Source: a virus
Taxonomy: Duplodnaviria > Caudoviricetes
Length of the DNA: 55,608 bases
Virus record (IMG/VR): IMGVR_UViG_3300012920_000048
Location: 1-55,608 of that record
Direction: 5' to 3' (one strand)
Both the position numbers and the translations under genes were made by a program. Shown here piece by piece: positions 17,926 to 28,284 of the stretch. The stretch's first letter is position 1. Every line of letters begins with the position of its first letter. Below the pieces are notes generated by a model. That model had not been told where the DNA came from. It ran no database searches and saw only the letters and a list, made by a program, of their open reading frames with translations.

Positions 17926-20900
17926 ATGGCACTAAATTTAAATACATCACCCTATTACGACGACTTTAGCGACGATAAAAGATTTCATCGCATCTTGTTT
18001 AAACCTGGTGTTCCAGTACAAGCTAGAGAGCTAACACAATTACAAACTATATTACAGGACCAAATGGAAAAAGGATTTGGTTTTGTTCTCCAAGAAGGAG
18101 CAGTAATTACAGGTTGCGCAGAATCACAAAGAACTATAGACTGGGTTAAAGTCAATGATACTGACGCATCTGCTACAACAATTAATAACACAGACTTAAC
18201 TAAGTATCTTAATAAGGTTGTTTTAGGTAGTGTTACAGGTTTAAAAGCAAAAATTACAAGTGTTGAAACAGGTTCTGTAGGTGAAGCACCTAATCTAAAA
18301 ACATTGTATGTAAAATATTTAAGTGAGACAGAAACACATACCTCATTTGAACCGTCAGAAACTTTAACAGTTATTACACTAAACGAAGAAACACAAGAAG
18401 CAAATGATGCAGGAACAAACCTAAACGGTGCTACTTTTGTTGTAAATAGTTTAGAAGACAATACAACACAAGCAGGCGGACCTGTAGGTACTACAACAGA
18501 TATTACATTAGAACCTGGTATTATACATGCCAGAGGTTCTTTTATAAAAACAGATAAAATTACAGCAAGGGTAGATAGATATAATACTAGGTTAGCAAAA
18601 CATGTAGGTTTTGTTATAACCGAAGCAGTAACACAAGCAGCTACAGATACAACACTATTAGATCCTGCACAAGGATCATTTAACTATAATGCTCCTGGAG
18701 CAGATAGACTTAAATATACAGTAGAGTTAAAATCTTTAGATGCTTCAGCAACTAAACCAGAAAATTTTTATTCATACGCACATTTTATTAATGGCGAAAT
18801 TCAAAGAGTACACCTCAAAGATAATCCTTTAGCAGGGTTGGGTGATATTCTAGCAAACAGAACATACGACGAGTCAGGCAATTATCTTGTTAGAGGTAAT
18901 TCAGTTACATTGAGAGAACATTTAAATGAAAATGACAACGGCGGTTTGTTTACATCAGGCAACAATGGCTCAAGAGCAGCTCTTGTAGTATCAGTTGATC
19001 CAGGTGTTTCTTATGTAGGTGGATTCAAAAGAGAGTTATTAAGTTCTAAAAGAATACCTATAATGAAACCAGGACACTTTATTACAAAAGAGTCTCAACC
19101 TATATCTACATCATATGGTAACTACATAGAAATAGAAGATGTTTCAGGTATCTGGGATGTCGACGGTGGCGCAGAAATTAAAATATATAACGCAGTACAA
19201 AACCAAAATGCCAGCCCACAAGGTAGTGAAATAGGTAAAGCAAAAGTTAGGCAATTAGTTTATTCTAGTGGCACAGCACCAACAGCAGTATATAGACTTT
19301 ATGTTTATGATGTTGAAATGATTAATGGTGAATTTAAAGATGCAAGAGGTATTAGATACTCTGCTACTAATGGAGGTATTGCAGATTTAGTTCTTAATAC
19401 ACCTAACGCAGCAGGCACAGCCAATCAACAACCAGGTATAAAAGAAAGTAAGGTAAATAAATTAGTTTACAGACTACCTTACAAACACATCAAAACACTA
19501 AAAGCAGAAACAGGTAGTACATATGATTACACATTCCAATATCAAAAGGAATTTGATGTAACACTAGATAGCACTAATGGTTCTGCTACACTTACGGTTT
19601 CAGGTTCTGAGACATTCCCTTATTCGGGTGTATTAACTGAAACACAAAAACAAGATTTTATTTGTATTGCCACAGCAGCGTTCAACCAAACTAGCGGACC
19701 TTCAGGCGGTACAATAGCAGCAGGAGAATATATAGATTTATCCTCAGGCTCTTCAACAGCAACAGTTACAGTAAACAGTGCTACATCTATTACAATAGAT
19801 ACAGGCGGTGCAATAACAAGTGGCTCTGGAAACATTAAAGTTTATGTTCCTGTACAAGTAGCAGACGGCACACCTGTTGCAAAAGCATTGCTACAAGACA
19901 GATATGTAAAAATAGATACAGGTACAAACTCTGCAGGAACAACTGGAGAATATAATATAGGTGTTTCAGATCTATATAAAGTACAGCAAATTACAGCAGG
20001 CACAAATTCAGATTATACTACTGGCCAAGTAGATGTAACAGCTCAATTTAGAGTAGTAGATGGACAATCTGATAACTACATAGGACATGCTAAAATTGTT
20101 AAAAAGAATAACAGTACTTTAGATTTAGCAACTAATAGATATATTGTTGTTAAATATTCATTCTTTGAACATACAGTATCAGGACCTTCATTTGCTTGTG
20201 TAGATAGTTATCCAGTAGATGATACATCAAGTCCAGCAGCGAATACAATTAGAACTGAAGATATTCCTGTTTTCCAATCTCAAAAATATGGAACATTTAG
20301 TTTAAGAGACGCAGTTGACTTCCGTCCTGTAATTACAGCAACTGCTACAAACACAAGTACATTAGGTAGCGCAACAGTCAATCCTGGTAATGAAAGAAAT
20401 ATTAGTAGACCAGGTTCTGGTTTAACAAACCCTAAACCAACAAAAACTTTTGCTACAGACTTGCAATATTATCAAGGTAAAAAATTAAGAGTAGTATTAG
20501 ACTTTGATGGCGAATATAGAATTATAGAAGGCACATACGGAGACGATCCTAAACTACCGGCTGAACCAGCAAGAACAATGACATTGGCTGAGGTAGATCT
20601 TAAACCTTATCCTTCACTTTCACCACAACTAGGTAGGCAAAAAGCCAAACCTGAATACACTAATGTTATTAAAAATGTATCTCAGAGAAGATACACAATG
20701 AAGAACATTGGTGCATTAGAACAAAGAATTAAAAACTTAGAATATTATTCTTCTCTTAACTTATTAGAGAATTATGCTAAAGACATGACTATTGTTACCG
20801 AAGGCGGTACAGATAGATTTAAGAATGGTATTCTAGTAGATCCGTTTACAGGACATAATGTTGGATCTGTATTAGATCCTCATTACAGAATTTCTATAGA

Positions 20901-23900
20901 CCCTGAGAAAAAACATGCTAGACCATTCTTTGCAATGGAAAACATAGATAACAGAATATTCTCGGGTATTAATACTAATGCCACAGTAGCAGGAACAGAG
21001 CTAAAATTAACAGGCAATACAATATCATTACCATACAATAGAATGGTATTAACACAACAACAGCAAGCTTCTCAAACTGAGAACTTGACAAAAGAATTGT
21101 TATTCCAATATGCAGGGGAGATGACACTATCACCAGATGTCGATAACTTCGTAGACACAGCAATACAACCTGCAGTCAATGTAAACTTTGACGGAAACTA
21201 TGACGCGTGGGAGAACATGGCAGAGGCTTGGGGAACACAATGGGGTTCATGGGAAGACTCAGGCGCTGCCAATGTTACATCAGTTACTGAAACAGCACAG
21301 TTTATTAATACTGGCGGAGGCTCAGGAGCTGGTGCGTCATTTACTACTACAACAACACAACAAACACAAGTAAGACAAGGTATAGGTCTAAATGTACAAG
21401 CATCAACAGAGACTCAATCATTAGGCGAGAAGGTTGTAGATGTAGCATTTGCTCCATTTATGAGAAGTCGAATGATTACAGCGACATGTACTAGACTAAG
21501 ACCTGAAACAAGAGTATATCCGTTCTTTGATGGAGAGGATGTATCAGATAATTGTACGATGGCAGACGGCAGTACAACTACATTAACAACAGATGCAGAC
21601 GGAAAAATAACAGTACTCTTTACAATACCTCAAGGAAGATTTAAAACAGGATCTAGGATATTTAAATTAACAAATAGCTCTACAAATTCTGAGAAAAATA
21701 TTACGACAACATGTAATGCAGTTTACGAGTCATCTGGTTTTATACAACAAAAACAAGATACAATCGTAGGAATGAAAACTGCTAATGTTAGCTCAACAGA
21801 ATTTTCAGATTCAAGAACATTAACAGATGTAAGCACAAGTTTTAGTGTTGGAGCAGGTACACCTTTACCTCCTCCCCCACCACCTGTTATTGTTAATAAC
21901 CCGGTACCGGTTCCAGTACCCACAACAGTTTTTGTACCACAACCTGTACCACAACCACCGGTGATTGTAATTTCACCTGTACCGGCACCACCTATACCGC
22001 CGGTACCGGTACCACCTCCACCGGTAGTACCACCGGTTACAACGCAACCGCCGACACCGGTTCCGGCACCGCCTAATCCGGCGCCACCACCTCCGGTACC
22101 ACCGCCCCCACCACCGAGTCCGGAGCCAACACCTGCGCCAACACCTGCGCCGACGGAACCGCCGGTTGTTACACAAGATTTGGAAACAGTTAGAGCAAAT
22201 GTTAGAAGGTGGATACGACAAGGCCGTTTCAGAATGGGCGATCCTTTAGCACAAACATTTGTTGTGCCTAATATACCAGGCGGTGTGTTTATTACTGATG
22301 TAGAAATATACTTTAAGAACAAACCATCATCAGGTAATAACGGTGTTACAATGCAAATTAGAGAAGTTATTAATGGTGTGCCAGGAGCTCGTATACTTCC
22401 TAATGGAACAAAAAGATTAGAAAGAGCAGATATTAATACTTCACAAGAAAGTGAAGGTGTAACAACATTTGTAGGAACGACATTTACATTTGACGATCCT
22501 GTTTATTTACAACCAGATCAAGAATATTGTTTTGTTCCTAAACCAGAAAATGACGAAGCAGGATATGATATTTGGATTTCTGAATTAGGAGAAAACCAAG
22601 TAGGTACAACAGAAAGAATTTCTAAACAACCACATGGTGGTATGATGTTTACTTCAGCTAATGATAGAACATGGAGCGCTCATCAGGCAAAAGACATCAT
22701 GTTTAACATACATAGAGCAACATTTAAAACAGGAAAAGTAAGTGGTAAAGTAACTAATAAAGACTTTGACTATGTAAACTTTAGTGAGTATAGCACAGGT
22801 TCAGCAATTAACTGGGACGCTGGTACTCACCTAGTAGGATTTACACCTACAATTACATCAGGAGGATCAGGATATTCTAGTGCTCCTACAGTTACAGTTG
22901 ATAACAGTAATACAAATGGAACAGGCTTGACAATGACAGCAACAATATCTGGAGGAGCAGTAACAGCTCTAACAGTTACAAGTCCTGGATCAGGGTACAC
23001 AAGTGCACCTACTATTACAATAGGAGCAGGAACAACGACAGCAACGGCAACACTTACATTACAACAAGGTAAAGTAGTTAATTACGATTCATTAAATGAA
23101 CAAGTAACATTAGACAGAACAGCAGATACATTACCATTTACAGTAGGACAAAGAATAGGTAATACACAAGGAAGTGCTTTAATAGGTTCATTTACAGATA
23201 AAATTATTAATGAAGTTGCACTAAACGCAGGCCTACTATTGCCTCATGTATTAACTACTGCAACAGCTTGTATTTCAATTAATGAAACAGGCGCATCGGA
23301 TGCTGTTTCTAAAACAGGTATTACAGAAGCATATACAGAATTAGACTTCAATACTACAACAGCATTAGAAAAAGAACATACTATTTACAGTAGATCTAAT
23401 GAAATGTCTACTTACAATAGTGATAAAACATCGTTGTTGGAAATAGAACTAGGATCTGATTTAGAAAACACCAGTCCTATATTATCACTAGAACAATTAG
23501 ATACTCTAGGAATAGTTAATAGAATTAATAATGATGCCACAGATGAAGACACAAGATTCAAAGGTAACGCAGAATCTAGATATATTACAAGAAGAGTAAT
23601 ATTAGAAGATGGCCAAGATGCTGAAGATATTTGTGTATACTTAGACGCAGCAGTTCCTAATGAAGGCAGCTTAAAAGTATATGCTAAATTACAAAACGCA
23701 GCAGATGAAGGAAACTTCCAGGAAGATTTAAGTTGGATAGAATTATCATCACAAACACCTCCATTTGAATCTACTGAAGATTTTGCAGAATACAAATATG
23801 GATTACCTCTTAAAGGCTCGAACGCAGCAGGACTAGACGGAGGTACACCTTCAGTCTTTGAATACGATGTAAAATGTGTTCAAAGTATTGCAGTGGGTGC

Positions 23901-24216
23901 AGGAGGAAGTGGTTATAGTGTATCACCTACAGTTACAATAACTGGCGGTGGTGGTTATGGCGCACAAGCAGAAGCAACAGTTTCAGGCGGTGCCATTACA
24001 GCAATTACGGTTACAAATCCTGGCCGTGAATATACAAGTGCACCAACAGTTACAATTACAGACTCTAGTGGATCAAGTGCTACGGCAACTGCTACAGTAG
24101 GTACAGTAACACATACAGGATTTAAAACATTCGCTATTAAGGTAGTGCCTTTAAGTACGACAACATCTAAGTGTCCTAAGTTTAAAGACTTAAGAGCTAT
24201 AGCATTGCAGGCATAA
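17926..24216 (+). CDS. Large VrlC/DUF4815-type virion structural protein (2096 aa)
   Basis: [95 protein letters not shown]. Confidence 0.85.
21862..22166 (+). repeat. Proline-rich low-complexity insert (~100 aa)
   Basis: [18 protein letters not shown]...[15 protein letters not shown]; locally GC-rich with many CCG codons. Confidence 0.9.
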
Positions 24217-24217
24217 G

Positions 24218-24448
24218 ATGAATAAGTTACCAACAGGCATTATAAATATTGAGGGAGAAAAAGATCTTGTAAGAGATCGTAACTCAAAAGCTTTATTAAA
24301 TACTAATTTAGAAAGTCTTAAGGCATATAAAATTAAAAGAAATGCAAATCTTAAGATAGTAGAGTATGAAAATGATATAAATACTTTAAAGACTGAATTA
24401 GTTGAAATAAAGAAAACTTTAGAACTTTTAGTCAACAAAATTACATAG
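24218..24448 (+). CDS. Hypothetical small coiled-coil protein
   Basis: LVRDRNSKALLNTN plus a heptad-pattern C-terminus; follows the VrlC-like gene. Confidence 0.75.
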   Translation: MNKLPTGIINIEGEKDLVRDRNSKALLNTNLESLKAYKIKRNANLKIVEYENDINTLKTELVEIKKTLELLVNKIT

Positions 24449-24456
24449 GAAGAAAC

Positions 24457-24987
24457 ATGGCAACTTTAACATTAAGATCAGCAAAAGGTAGTCCTCTTAC
24501 TAACAATGAGGTTGACGCTAACTTTACCAATCTTAATACTGACAAATACGAATCAGGATCTAATGTATCTTTAGGTACAATTTCTGGTACGACTGTTAAT
24601 GTTACTTCTGTAACTACAACAGCAGGTTTAACAGTAGGAGGTTCTTCTACATTAAGCACATCTGCTACAGTATCAGCAGCAGGTTCAGACCAGTCAGGTG
24701 CTACAGCACTAACTAATTCGTATAATATTGTTACAACTGCTACAGCTAACCAGGGTGTAAAACTTCCTGATTGTGCAGCAGGTTTGGAAGCTTTTCTTTT
24801 GAATGACACGGCAGTTAATCTTAAAGTTTACCCAGCATCAGGCGAATCTGTTGATAGTGGATCAGCCAATGTTGCAGTAGATTTAGCGCCAGGACATTCA
24901 TTGAAATTGGTAGGAGTAAGCGCAACAAAATGGAACAGGCTAAGTCCTGTAATCATTTACAACTCATCGGGAACAAGAGTAAATTAA
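24457..24987 (+). CDS. Short fibre/adaptor protein
   Basis: N-terminal LRSAKGSPLTNNEVDANFTNLN, a fibre-type start; C-terminal IYNSSGTRVN. Confidence 0.6.
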   Translation: MATLTLRSAKGSPLTNNEVDANFTNLNTDKYESGSNVSLGTISGTTVNVTSVTTTAGLTVGGSSTLSTSATVSAAGSDQSGATALTNSYNIVTTATANQGVKLPDCAAGLEAFLLNDTAVNLKVYPASGESVDSGSANVAVDLAPGHSLKLVGVSATKWNRLSPVIIYNSSGTRVN

Positions 24988-25002: not shown

Positions 25003-26283
25003 ATGAGACCTCTAAGAATTAAAGCATCAGCATATCCAGTAAGTTCAGGTAACTTACAGGGTTTGCAAGAAATGACAGATTCAGAAATAGAACAGTATTA
25101 CAGTGCTATTTTAACATTAGATTTCGCAGATAATACAGATGGTTCTGGTACTGCGGAAATTAATATCAATGGAGGAACAGGAACTTCTATCGGAACAGCA
25201 ACCGATACAAAAAGAGATGACGCAGTAGGAACACACCCAACAGACGGTGCAAGTTCTACGGTTACTACTTATACAGCTAAACAAATAGAAACAGCAGCGT
25301 CAGAAAGTATTACTAACAGACCTTTAGGATATGTATCCTCAGGTACAGTTGGAATGCACGAGTTCGACGATACAGAATTAGACACAGACATTTTAGATAA
25401 AGTCGTAGATGATTTTGTTGCACAAGGCGATTATACTGTAGGACAATATAAACTATCTACAAGCTCACCTTCAGGTGGTACTTGGACTTCTCGTTACACA
25501 TTGGTAAACACAGAAGTAGATGGTACAAGCACAAGTTATTACATTTGGCAAAAGACAGCAGCTACAACATCAGCAGTAGCTAATTACAAACCACTTAAAG
25601 TAACAGGTGGTGGAGCTGGTGTTCAAGAAATGACTGTTGCTGAAATGGAACAAATTGTTCCTAATTTAAGAAACTACATGATTTCTAGTGGTAAAGGGAA
25701 ATATGTATTACAAGCAGCAGCTCCAGGTTCAGGTACTTGGGTTGATCAAGGTTCATTTATTGATACAAAGAAAGAAGTAGCAGCACAAAACTATACAGGT
25801 TCTTATGAAGGAACATACACAGGGTCTTATACAGGTGGTTATACAGGTGCCAAAAACTACGCAGGCACATATACAGGTGCCAAATCTTATTCAGGAAGTT
25901 ATGTAGGAACCTCAGGTTATGCAGGCACATACACAGGAACCTCAGGTTATTCCGGTACATATTCAGGTGACTACACAGGAAACTATGCTGCCAACTATTC
26001 AGGTTATGCAGGTACATCTTACGCAGGCACATACGCTGGCTCATATACAGGGTACTATACAGGTGCCAAAAACTATACAGGTTATTACACAGGTGCTAAA
26101 ACATATGGCGGAACTTATGTAGGCACATCAAACTATGCAGGCACATACACAGGAACATCTGCTTATTCCGGTTCATATTCAGGTAACTACACAGGTTATT
26201 ACTCAGGCACATATTCAGGCGATACAATTCAAAGTTCAAATGAAACAGTCAGTACGGTAAAACTGTGGCTTAGAACTGCTTAA
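25003..26283 (+). CDS. Putative fibre protein with a Tyr-x-Gly repeat array
   Basis: 426-aa ORF with 32 consecutive Y-initiated units near the C-terminus. Confidence 0.65.
   Translation: MRPLRIKASAYPVSSGNLQGLQEMTDSEIEQYYSAILTLDFADNTDGSGTAEININGGTGTSIGTATDTKRDDAVGTHPTDGASSTVTTYTAKQIETAASESITNRPLGYVSSGTVGMHEFDDTELDTDILDKVVDDFVAQGDYTVGQYKLSTSSPSGGTWTSRYTLVNTEVDGTSTSYYIWQKTAATTSAVANYKPLKVTGGGAGVQEMTVAEMEQIVPNLRNYMISSGKGKYVLQAAAPGSGTWVDQGSFIDTKKEVAAQNYTGSYEGTYTGSYTGGYTGAKNYAGTYTGAKSYSGSYVGTSGYAGTYTGTSGYSGTYSGDYTGNYAANYSGYAGTSYAGTYAGSYTGYYTGAKNYTGYYTGAKTYGGTYVGTSNYAGTYTGTSAYSGSYSGNYTGYYSGTYSGDTIQSSNETVSTVKLWLRTA
25792..26223 (+). repeat. YxG(x/xxx) coding repeat, 32 units
   Basis: TA(T/C)nnnGGn repeats with 12/18-nt period; units 5-14 and 21-30 are near duplicates. 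Confidence 0.92.
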
Positions 26284-26319: not shown

Positions 26320-26904
26320 ATGGCAAACGAAAATGTCGTTCTTGAGATTGATCCTAGTAATATAACAACAGTCCAAGACGAACCCAAGAAAAGAAATTTT
26401 GTTTACAAAGATCCTTATTGGTCTAATAAGGATGCCAAACATATGATCGTAACTCTTGAATACGAAGATGGTAGAAAGTCTACAGCATCTATTCAAGACA
26501 AAGACGGCACAAATCCAGATTACAAAGCAATACTAGAAGAGTTTGGTGAAGAAGTATTAGATAATAACACAGCAGAAGGTGTTAGACGTCGTGATGAACA
26601 AGTTAAGAAAAGACTACAAAGAAAAGAAACAGAAGCAGTTAGGGCTAGACAAGAAGCATTGTTTGGTGCTAAGTTACAAGCATTTGAAATAGATAAAATT
26701 AAACATTCATCTAATGTAGAATTGAAAAGACTTATTCGTAAGGCAAAAACACCTTTGGAAGTTACATCTTATACAACAATTTTATTATTAGATGACTTTA
26801 TGAATAACAAAACTGTAACAGACTTGTGGGACGAAACTCCAAATCTAATACAGAAATTGAAAGAAGTTGCGGAAGTAGTTTTTGATGAAAGAGATAAATC
26901 CTAA
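26320..26904 (+). CDS. Hypothetical protein, possible fibre assembly chaperone
   Basis: Directly follows the fibre gene; DPYWSNKDAKHMIVTL loosely resembles fibre-chaperone N-termini (inference). Confidence 0.5.
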   Translation: MANENVVLEIDPSNITTVQDEPKKRNFVYKDPYWSNKDAKHMIVTLEYEDGRKSTASIQDKDGTNPDYKAILEEFGEEVLDNNTAEGVRRRDEQVKKRLQRKETEAVRARQEALFGAKLQAFEIDKIKHSSNVELKRLIRKAKTPLEVTSYTTILLLDDFMNNKTVTDLWDETPNLIQKLKEVAEVVFDERDKS

Positions 26905-27637
26905 AGATTTTCCTGAGAACGGATTTGTAATTGTAGCATCGTTAAAGGAAAGATTTTATAAAGCAGCAATAGAATGTGCAGAGTCAGTTAAATTATTTTG
27001 GCCTGAAGCACATATTACAGTATTCGTAGATCATGAAGAATGGATCAAACCATCTGATTACAATGTAGCAGATTATATTGTACATTGGGAAGTACCTAAA
27101 CATATTAGAGCTAAACTATGGGCATTAGGTAACACACCTTATAAAGGTATTACATGTTACTTAGATGCAGACATGTATTGTCAACATGAAGATGTAGAAT
27201 TTATATTTGATCAACTGCCTGATGATTTAGATTTATTGTTTACAAAAATTAGACCTTACAATGCTAAGGTAACTAAACTTACAAACACAGAAGAAATGAC
27301 AGCACATTGTGGCATGTTCTTATATAGAAACAATCCTCATACAATTAAACTTATGGAAGATTGGTATGGAGAATATGTTAAACAAAATCTTAGAGATCCT
27401 AAAGGTGGTTGGGTACATGAATTGGGAGGCGACTATCCTAGTGATGTAAGAAAGTGGGATACTTTTACAATGTGGCGACTACTTACATACGGAGATGGAG
27501 ATGTAAAGTGGAGAGACGATTTACATATTAGATGGAATTTTATTAATGGACATTTAGATAGTGAACTTGAAGGTGAAGAAATAGTTTTTTGGCATTACAC
27601 TATCCCACAACACGAAATACACTTGAAGAGAAAATAA
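26885..27637 (+). CDS. GT-A fold glycosyltransferase
   Basis: RAKLWALGNTPY, YLDAD (DxD), HCGMFLY, WDTFTMW, RWNF, FWHYT; ATG at 26885 preferred over TTG at 26882. Confidence 0.75.
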   Translation: MKEINPKDFPENGFVIVASLKERFYKAAIECAESVKLFWPEAHITVFVDHEEWIKPSDYNVADYIVHWEVPKHIRAKLWALGNTPYKGITCYLDADMYCQHEDVEFIFDQLPDDLDLLFTKIRPYNAKVTKLTNTEEMTAHCGMFLYRNNPHTIKLMEDWYGEYVKQNLRDPKGGWVHELGGDYPSDVRKWDTFTMWRLLTYGDGDVKWRDDLHIRWNFINGHLDSELEGEEIVFWHYTIPQHEIHLKRK

Positions 27638-28284
27638 TGAAATGGATTAATATGTCAGATGAGATACTAGATATGTTGAATCCATATACCGATTGGTTTT
27701 TCAAACAAGATACAACTTGGTTAGACGAAAAATCTAAAGAACACGAAAAGAATACAAGTACATTAGAACATGCCTGTTCAGATGATTATCTAAAAGAGAT
27801 AGTAGAAAAAGATGGTAGGCATGAAGGATATCCTGAGATATCATACAGTTTTGATCTTGCCTCAAGAACTATACCAGGTGAGTTTCAAGAGAAATACAAT
27901 GAGCTAACTGATGAGCTCCTGGCATTCTTAGGTGCCAGGAACCAAGCTGTTCATGTATATTATCCTAAGAATGGATTCATGGGTTGGCACAATAACTGGA
28001 ATGCACATGGATACAATATATTATTATCATATACGAAACATGGGGGCGGGTTCTTTAAGTATAGAGATCCTGTCACCCATGAAGTAGTAGAGATGTTAGA
28101 TCCAGGTGGTTGGTCTGCGAAAGTAGGTTATTATGGCAGGGGCAGAGAACCCGATAAAGTCTACTATCATTGTGCTGGAACACACGAACCGAGACTCACA
28201 TTAGGGTTCGTAGTACCCAATTTGGACATTTGGCGGTCCATGATTGAGGATATTTCTGGAGAAGATGCCTCACATTTCTCCTAA
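27637..28284 (+). CDS. 2OG-Fe(II) oxygenase/cupin-like protein
   Basis: YYPKNGFMGWHNN ... GGGFF ... YHCA ... RLTLGF fits the DSBH pattern (H-x-N in place of H-x-D); start overlaps the upstream stop (TAATG). Confidence 0.6.
   Translation: MKWINMSDEILDMLNPYTDWFFKQDTTWLDEKSKEHEKNTSTLEHACSDDYLKEIVEKDGRHEGYPEISYSFDLASRTIPGEFQEKYNELTDELLAFLGARNQAVHVYYPKNGFMGWHNNWNAHGYNILLSYTKHGGGFFKYRDPVTHEVVEMLDPGGWSAKVGYYGRGREPDKVYYHCAGTHEPRLTLGFVVPNLDIWRSMIEDISGEDASHFS

Follow-up and report, generated by a model that had tools for sequence, protein, structure and literature searches.

In the 55.6-kb viral fragment IMGVR_UViG_3300012920_000048 (hereafter the window, i.e., the whole stretch of DNA that was analysed, estimated to be 34% complete), one gene encodes a fibre-like protein of 426 aa (hereafter the query) whose last third is an array of x-Y-x-G units (residues 264-407; positions 25792-26223, in the frame of the open reading frame (ORF) 25003..26283), and we consider it probable that this array folds back on itself as a long two-stranded antiparallel stalk. 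A preliminary description of the array had proposed such a hairpin with approximately 70 residues per arm, and the proposal is supported because the order of lysine-type (K) and threonine/serine-type (T) six-residue units is compensated between the arms in relatives, the hairpin at the base of the array is homologous to that of the second N-domain repeat, the smallest family members retain little more than the turn, and AlphaFold2 models point the same way. The protein belongs to an uncharacterised, abundant phage family with a repeat architecture that is new for a phage fibre, and this family is absent from Pfam, PHROGs, and PDB. Attachment of a phage to a given cell is determined by its fibres and baseplate appendages, and for most of these proteins in marine T4-like phages the annotation goes no further than hypothetical.

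Array anatomy and the limits of symmetry

Translation of the array and cutting at each Y-x-[GA] gave 32 units and 144 residues, reproducing exactly the previously listed unit lengths (units 1-16: 4,4,4,4,6,4,6,4,6,4,6,4,4,4,4,3; units 17-32: 5,4,4,4,6,4,6,4,6,4,6,4,4,4,4,4). The composition is dominated by a few residues (Y35 G35 T27 S19 A13 N6 K4 V2 D2 E1), and His, Cys, and Pro are absent from residues 264-407. The hexamers occupy units 5, 7, 9, and 11 in the first half (AKN, AKS, TSG, TSG) and units 21, 23, 25, and 27 in the second (AKN, AKT, TSN, TSA), while the sole 3-mer is unit 16 (YSG). The mirror symmetry that had been described for this list holds for the hexamer positions, but the lengths do not form an exact palindrome, as units 15 and 17 differ (4 vs. 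5) and unit 32 has no partner.

The two halves had also been described as direct duplicates, in agreement with the output of Tandem Repeats Finder (period of 216 nt, 1.9 copies, 78% matches, 0 indels, 25801-26219) and with the two 210-nt copies recovered by a repeat search, in which no inverted repeats were found at the array DNA. The mirror symmetry of unit lengths in the query arises because a regularly alternating block was directly duplicated: when hexamers at p, p + 10, p + 20, and p + 30 are copied at + 72, a mirror centre halfway between the copies is inevitable. The length symmetry had been the original argument for a hairpin, and it does not rise above chance once the duplication is known. 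The direct duplication together with the 10-residue sub-repeats would by themselves reproduce it in a chain that does not fold back at all, such as a beta-solenoid or a trimeric shaft with parallel chains in register, and that most phage fibres are parallel trimers (PMC12143355) counts in favour of this alternative as well.

Beyond the reach of the duplication lies the order of hexamer types: K,K,T,T in both halves, a pattern that equals its reverse complement when K and T are exchanged. As 4 of the 16 possible four-letter K/T patterns are self-complementary, this property of the query sequence, taken by itself, would be weak evidence for fold-back.

Compensated hexamer orders in relatives

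The order of hexamer types was compared in a close set of 189 identifiers, comprising 120 proteins, 68 complete orthologues from viral contigs, and the query. Two proteins without flank motifs were dropped, leaving 187 identifiers with 117 distinct arrays; four orthologues cut by contig ends and eight loci that were scored separately stand outside this set. Arrays were segmented by dynamic programming, hexamers were called K with Lys/Arg at position 5 and T with Thr/Ser at position 4, and an array passed if all its K-type hexamers had T-type partners around a single shared centre. This was the case for 110 of the 117 distinct arrays and, with the same geometry and point substitutions, for P0055, which gives 111/117 with K opposite T; the eight separate loci contributed five further distinct arrays, four of which passed. 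In the query, the pairs KT, KT, TK, and TK share a common centre at array position 71.5, between G334 and Y335. The conforming arrays range from 51 to 363 residues, and their K/T centre falls 0.5 residue (93 arrays) or 1.0 residue (17 arrays) from the midpoint defined by the flanks. Two expectations of the preliminary description, that an AK unit faces a TS unit on the opposite arm and that indels in orthologues are compensated on both arms, are thus borne out in 111/117 distinct arrays.

Several of these orders are not duplications and can therefore be explained only by pairing. The order KKT|KTT occurs in L041, L055, L078, L040, and L072-L075 (three pairs, one centre each), KTKTK|TKTKT in P0039 (five pairs sharing the centre 73.5; this cluster, with 82% identity to the query, comprises 49 member sequences and 5 contigs), and KKTTKKK|TTTKKTT in L076/L077 (seven pairs sharing the centre 181.5). 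If the letters of each order were shuffled at random, self-complementarity would arise with chances of 0.40, 0.127, and 0.037 for three, five, and seven pairs, respectively. Mirror geometry without duplication is also present in the distant relatives P0123, where the positions of SRN hexamers sum to 784, 784, and 784 and those of a GPAN/GTAT pair to 788 around the motif YTLFYGG, and P0238, where four hexamer pairs each sum to 780. In P0125, repeat types A,B and B,A flank an inserted domain and lie equally far from the base. In a position-only mirror test of 148 distinct length patterns, two-hexamer arrays passed both tests trivially and many distant arrays had odd or zero hexamer counts.

A chain without fold-back, in which symmetry is a by-product of duplication, predicts neither the non-duplicated self-complementary orders nor arms that are equal within 1 residue over array lengths of 51-363, and both ends of the array join one N-domain hairpin. 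A solenoid of fixed coil length fits poorly in addition, as hexamers recur every 10 or every 22 residues among orthologues; no single coil length was found, and the unit order is not periodic but mirror-complementary in L076, P0039, L055, P0123, and P0238. We therefore regard this alternative as very unlikely.

Origin of the hairpin in the N-domain repeats

The N-terminal 263 residues consist of three tandem helix-plus-beta-hairpin repeats. Internal alignments gave z = 9.3 for repeats 2 and 3 (score reached by 0/300 shuffles), z = 4.1 for repeats 1 and 3 (1/300), and z = 2.8 for repeats 1 and 2 (7/300), and the helix motif G[LVM][QH]E[MF] occurs in each repeat, at residues 20, 117, and 206. 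This three-repeat N-domain with its G[LV]QEM motif is a family feature, present in the query and conserved in alignments A1 and A2. A single chain with three such repeats may form a pseudo-threefold base; the domain had no fold match in PDB or BFVD.

In the consensus of the family, repeat 2 has the pattern GGTW..DT-turn-T..LW.KT and repeat 3 the pattern GGTW..DTR-[array]-T..LW.RTA, and the distance from GTW to [IL]W in the query is 22 residues in the former and 177 in the latter, with LWLRT(421) as the counterpart of IWQKT(181); the array is therefore an extension of the tip of a pre-existing hairpin. Accordingly placed between the strands of the third-repeat hairpin, the aromatic-x-Gly array that characterises the family is present in the query with its 144 residues, and the query C-terminus, GDTIQSSNETVSTVKLWLRTA, contains the conserved strand G.T[IV]....(S/T)..LW.R(T)A, whose columns are invariant or nearly so in the family alignments. 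The best local alignment of the C-terminal 24 residues with the N-domain lies at the expected place (175-186, ...YYIWQKTA), with a score that is not significant by itself (reached by 187/300 shuffles). The size of the array varies widely among relatives, from 10 residues up to arms hundreds or thousands of residues apart. In the shortest (P0202, P0235, P0263, and P0246; 278-296 aa) it has 10-12 residues and contains little beyond the turn YY.G..xG.

Structure predictions

AlphaFold2 was run on the query with a 44-sequence alignment and on P0148, a short relative, with a 45-sequence alignment. The model of P0148 (mean predicted local distance difference test (pLDDT) 91.7, predicted template modelling score 0.82) contains one continuous hairpin, E238-270/E273-314, with a turn at G271-G272 of the motif YVLYY-GG-RNYG; pLDDT is 65-69 in its array and 88-98 in the flanks. 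The conserved junction of the query aligns with this central turn motif of the short relatives. If a two-residue turn is assumed in P0148, an outgoing Tyr in the model would face position 4 of a returning unit, and Gly would face position 2.

For the query, the N-domain was predicted confidently, including the hairpin of repeat 2 (E161-170/E176-184, pLDDT ~87-91), and the strands flanking the array, 246-265 and 403-424, had pLDDT values of ~90 (246-265: ~89). Most strands predicted inside the array are symmetric about residues 334-335, e.g., 272-280/388-397 and 317-325/343-351. A trimer prediction of residues 236-426 (three copies) had a score of 0.00 with the chain itself folded with low confidence, and was counted neither way. 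Foldseek searches of PDB and BFVD with the query and P0148 models returned 0 matches at E ≤ 0.001.

Evidence against a single hairpin and alternative folds

Several observations weigh against the fold-back of the array as one hairpin. AlphaFold2 output is a prediction, and strand pairing was read from DSSP strand ranges rather than from coordinates. The query array itself (residues 266-401) had pLDDT < 50; the monomer prediction that had been suggested as a check gave a single hairpin for P0148 and low confidence for the query array. In the query model there is, in addition, a local hairpin, 355-361/379-385, with its centre at unit 24. Indels restricted to one arm, which had been named as the kind of change that would speak against a hairpin, are absent from most arrays and occur, with lengths of 10 or 20 residues, in 5/117: P0019 (KTT|KKTT) and P0023 (KKT|KKTT) have 3 + 4 hexamers, P0045 and P0046 (KTKT|KT) 4 + 2, and P0059 (KT|KTKT) 2 + 4. 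Each of these five comes from one contig, and assembly error is a possible cause. The hexamers of L053/L054 and L081 were too degenerate to score, and the distant P0167 appears by eye as a direct repeat (4 6 6 4 6 4 | 6 6 4 6 4) rather than a mirror. Moreover, there are single-block variants, P0061 (357 aa, KTKT) and P0062 (337 aa, KT), whose blocks are still self-complementary; the turn need not always lie at the junction motif, since in these two it must be elsewhere. Finally, mutual information in 37 equal-length arrays was raised alike for anti-diagonal, direct (+ 72), and half-block pairings (~0.09-0.10 vs. a background of - 0.005), because the K/T swap and shared ancestry dominate the signal. 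As a separate observation, the single blocks of P0061 and P0062 suggest recombination between direct repeats.

Part of this evidence would suit two tandem hairpins, in which each 72-residue block folds on itself (unit 5 with 11, unit 7 with 9) to give a four-stranded bundle of half the length. Taken alone, either half (K,K,T,T or K,T,K,T) is self-complementary, the single-block variants exist, the 4 + 2 and 2 + 4 variants fit unequal independent hairpins, and the query model has its local hairpin around unit 24. The halves are, however, not self-complementary in KKT|KTT (8 loci), P0039, and L076, and the short relatives have one central turn, predicted by AlphaFold2 as one hairpin, with which the junction of the query aligns. 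On balance, we consider tandem hairpins unlikely.

The low pLDDT, the low-confidence chain in the trimer prediction, and the composition (Y, G, T, and S at 35, 35, 27, and 19 of 144 residues) would also be compatible with a disordered, sticky low-complexity tail without fixed structure, resembling the [G/S]Y[G/S] prion-like domains. Prion-like domains of the Tyr/Gly/Ser type are dominated by Tyr, Gly, Ser, and Thr and follow no strict period, whereas the array keeps a 4-residue period, the spacing of hexamers, and the complementarity between arms. Unit register, hexamer spacing, and K/T complementarity are retained exactly down to 48% identity, and the array of P0148 was modelled as regular strands, which leaves disorder extremely unlikely.

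Proposed stalk and its significance

Under the favoured fold-back, the gene product would serve a marine T4-like myophage as a fibre or stalk protein of the virion, forming a baseplate-associated appendage in which the hairpin of the third N-domain repeat has been enormously lengthened into the array. The chain would leave the base as a strand, run outwards for ~70 residues of x-Y-x-G, turn at S333-G334-Y335-A336, and return antiparallel for another ~70, after which the conserved C-terminal strand (...VKLWLRTA) would close the stalk hairpin. The rise of a beta strand is ~3.3 Å per residue, and because each arm has ~70 residues, the stalk would be ~23 nm long. Tyr and Gly would alternate on one face of each strand. 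Hexamers add two residues and would be needed at the same height on both strands for Tyr and Gly to keep their register; they should thus occur in facing pairs because a two-residue insertion must be matched to keep Tyr/Gly in step. A Lys-type hexamer (Y.G.K.) would always face a Thr/Ser-type one (Y.GTS.), with the K/T order being self-complementary like a palindromic nucleic-acid hairpin, and direct duplication of a K,K,T,T block would yield a longer stalk in which register is kept and the chain still pairs with itself. In larger relatives, a distal, probably host-facing domain would sit at the turn, with the stalk probably holding it off the baseplate, while in the query, which lacks such a domain, the Tyr-rich ribbon itself would be the exposed part. 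As put forward in the preliminary description, the stalk may be oligomeric, and its tyrosines may bind glycans or surfaces, be cross-linked, or be modified.

More tentatively, and with some doubt on our side, the family may represent a new kind of fibre, in which a single chain is its own antiparallel partner and a two-letter code of K vs. T/S sets the register. Duplication of self-complementary blocks, or unequal crossing-over between them, could then alter stalk length while preserving the fold, whole receptor-binding domains could be inserted at the turn, and the module would emerge from one hairpin of a possibly pseudo-threefold base instead of forming a classical parallel trimer. In such a reading, stalks span from a bare turn to > 180 residues per arm. 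If the fold-back is true, a simple sequence rule would be available for recognising proteins with such stalks, stalk length would be predictable from sequence, and the distal, probably host-facing domain could be located in the giant relatives. The family would also be a natural example of compensating insertions on two protein strands, useful for the design of rigid beta-ribbon spacers.

Comparison with known systems

The closest likeness among phage fibres may be the needle of T4 gp37 (the tip of the long tail fibre), also a long thin beta structure of a T4-like myophage fibre in which each chain runs out and back, with a distal part at the turn as in part of the present family. Judging from the compensated architecture, internal homology, and AlphaFold2, the out-and-back antiparallel course would be shared. 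The gp37 needle is described as six-stranded and antiparallel with the head at its far end (PMC9659904), and seven iron ions bound by histidines along its length hold it together (PMC6957217). In contrast, His-x-His iron motifs do not occur in the His-free array, which is built of x-Y-x-G with paired hexamers, and the query has neither a sequence match to any PDB chain nor a significant Foldseek fold match; it does not belong to the gp37 family. The stems of beta-pore-forming toxins (the anthrax protective antigen pore, CDTb, lysenin, and aerolysin) likewise contribute one very long two-stranded hairpin per subunit, and no other PDB chains recurred among the alignments to the P0148 hairpin (~95 columns, E ~1, not significant, a likeness in shape only).

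A collagen-like triple helix was rejected, as Gly recurs every 4 residues (6 in hexamers) and not every third. Tentaclins are unrelated, being composed of C-type lectin plus Ig domains (PMC10743442). The open-access literature, represented mostly by abstracts, yielded no account of phage fibres with x-Y-x-G hairpin arrays.

Gene context and family distribution

The coordinates of the gene, its parts, and its neighbours are given in Table 1.

Table 1. Features of the array gene and its surroundings, in window coordinates
Feature	Position	Strand	Basis
Gene for fibre-like protein, 426 aa (stop included)	25003..26283	+	ORF list, homologues
N-domain repeat 1, ~residues 1-100: helix motif GLQEMTDSEIEQ at residue 20 plus beta-hairpin	25003..25302	+	Repeat alignments, AlphaFold2 strands E61-71/E84-94
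N-domain repeat 2, ~residues 101-195: GMHEFDDTELD helix (residue 117), short hairpin from GTW(159) to IWQKT(181)	25303..25587	+	
N-domain repeat 3, first part, residues 196-263: GVQEMTVAEMEQ helix (residue 206), GTW(244), base strand into the array	25588..25791	+	
Putative outgoing arm, residues 264-334, units 1-16	25792..26004	+	Unit parse, K/T pair centre
Two Lys-type hexamers, outgoing arm: YTGAKN 280-285 and YTGAKS 290-295, with a 4-mer between	25840..25887	+	
Two Thr/Ser-type hexamers, outgoing arm: YVGTSG 300-305 and YTGTSG 310-315	25900..25947	+	
Inferred turn S333-G334-Y335-A336 in the conserved junction YAAN-YSG-YAGTS	25999..26010	+	K/T centre, AlphaFold2 symmetry, homologous motif of P0148
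Putative returning arm, residues 335-407, units 17-32	26005..26223	+	Unit parse, K/T pairing
Two Lys-type hexamers, returning arm: YTGAKN 352-357 and YTGAKT 362-367, predicted to face the outgoing Thr/Ser hexamers	26056..26103	+	
Two Thr/Ser-type hexamers, returning arm: YVGTSN 372-377 and YTGTSA 382-387, predicted to face the outgoing Lys hexamers	26116..26163	+	
Direct tandem duplication, two 210-nt copies, spacing 216, 78% identical	25801..26226	+	Tandem Repeats Finder, repeat search
C-terminal strand TIQSSNETVSTVKLWLRTA, closing the repeat-3 hairpin against residues 246-265	26224..26280	+	Family alignments A1/A2, AlphaFold2 strand E403-424
Upstream neighbours: 2096-aa DUF4815 protein, 76-aa virion structural protein (phrog_473), 176-aa fibre-like ORF	17926..24987	+	
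Downstream neighbours: ORFs of 194, 251, and 231 aa, no family assigned	26320..28284	+	

Upstream of the array gene, gene products match T4 gp5, gp6, a gp7-like wedge protein, and gp8, followed by the DUF4815 and phrog_473 proteins; the gp6-like protein is nearest to those of Methylophilales phage Melnitz, Pelagibacter phage HTVC008M, and Synechococcus myophages (33-37% identity). All three upstream neighbours were found in 72/72 related loci holding at least 1500 nt upstream, and all three downstream neighbours in 75/75 loci holding at least 1500 nt downstream. Because of the gp5-gp8-like, DUF4815, and phrog_473 neighbours, the conserved synteny, and a tail fibre cluster in phage C48C1 (see below), we lean towards a location of the protein in the virion, at the baseplate.

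The query had no Pfam or PHROG family, only unnamed viral clusters matched it in the ESM Atlas, and a PDB sequence profile search gave nothing below E 0.03, the matches being unrelated HIF chains. In marine metagenomes, at least 976 homologues were found at E ≤ 0.001 among 8000 candidates scored, with at least 557 family representatives after clustering at 50% identity, and 127 of the 150 listed representatives passed the flank-motif filter. On viral contigs, 207/211 candidate stretches were confirmed as members of the family, and a profile search of the whole record of the pelagiphage HTVC008M gave no family member.

A true homologue, annotated as hypothetical, is encoded by Kyanoviridae phage C48C1 (WJE88074.1; locus L083, OQ984149.1 141011-151054). 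It has 3347 aa, i.e., it is ~8 times longer than the query with thousands of residues between the arms, and the annotation conveys no functional knowledge. Matches to the family profile were obtained in its N-domain (E 8.6e-50) and at its C-terminus (E 3.5e-12), and at 21 places within the ORF in all; the protein has the three-repeat N-domain, [YF]xG-type arms, and a C-terminal ...TYTLYVRVA strand. Its gene adjoins genes annotated as tail fiber protein and tail assembly chaperone. Many internal aromatic-x-Gly and Arg-rich repeat blocks were also seen in this protein.

The neighbouring ORFs had been taken for enzymes, a view that received no support from Pfam or PDB, and the downstream ORFs (194, 251, and 231 aa) matched nothing in Pfam, PHROGs, or PDB. 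A possible D-x-D-like YLDADMY was noticed by eye in the 251-aa ORF, and a GWHNN...H pattern in the 231-aa ORF. The downstream ORFs as called overlap (26882-26904, 27589-37), and the latter two begin at TTG, making their starts uncertain. Between the phrog_473 protein and the array gene, the 176-aa ORF (24457-24987) has no family match; its N-terminus may resemble the start of many phage tail fibre proteins. The DUF4815 protein has 54 prolines in 103 residues (1313-1415; window positions 21862-22170), a stretch that is probably a linker between the DUF4815 part and the C-terminal repeats.

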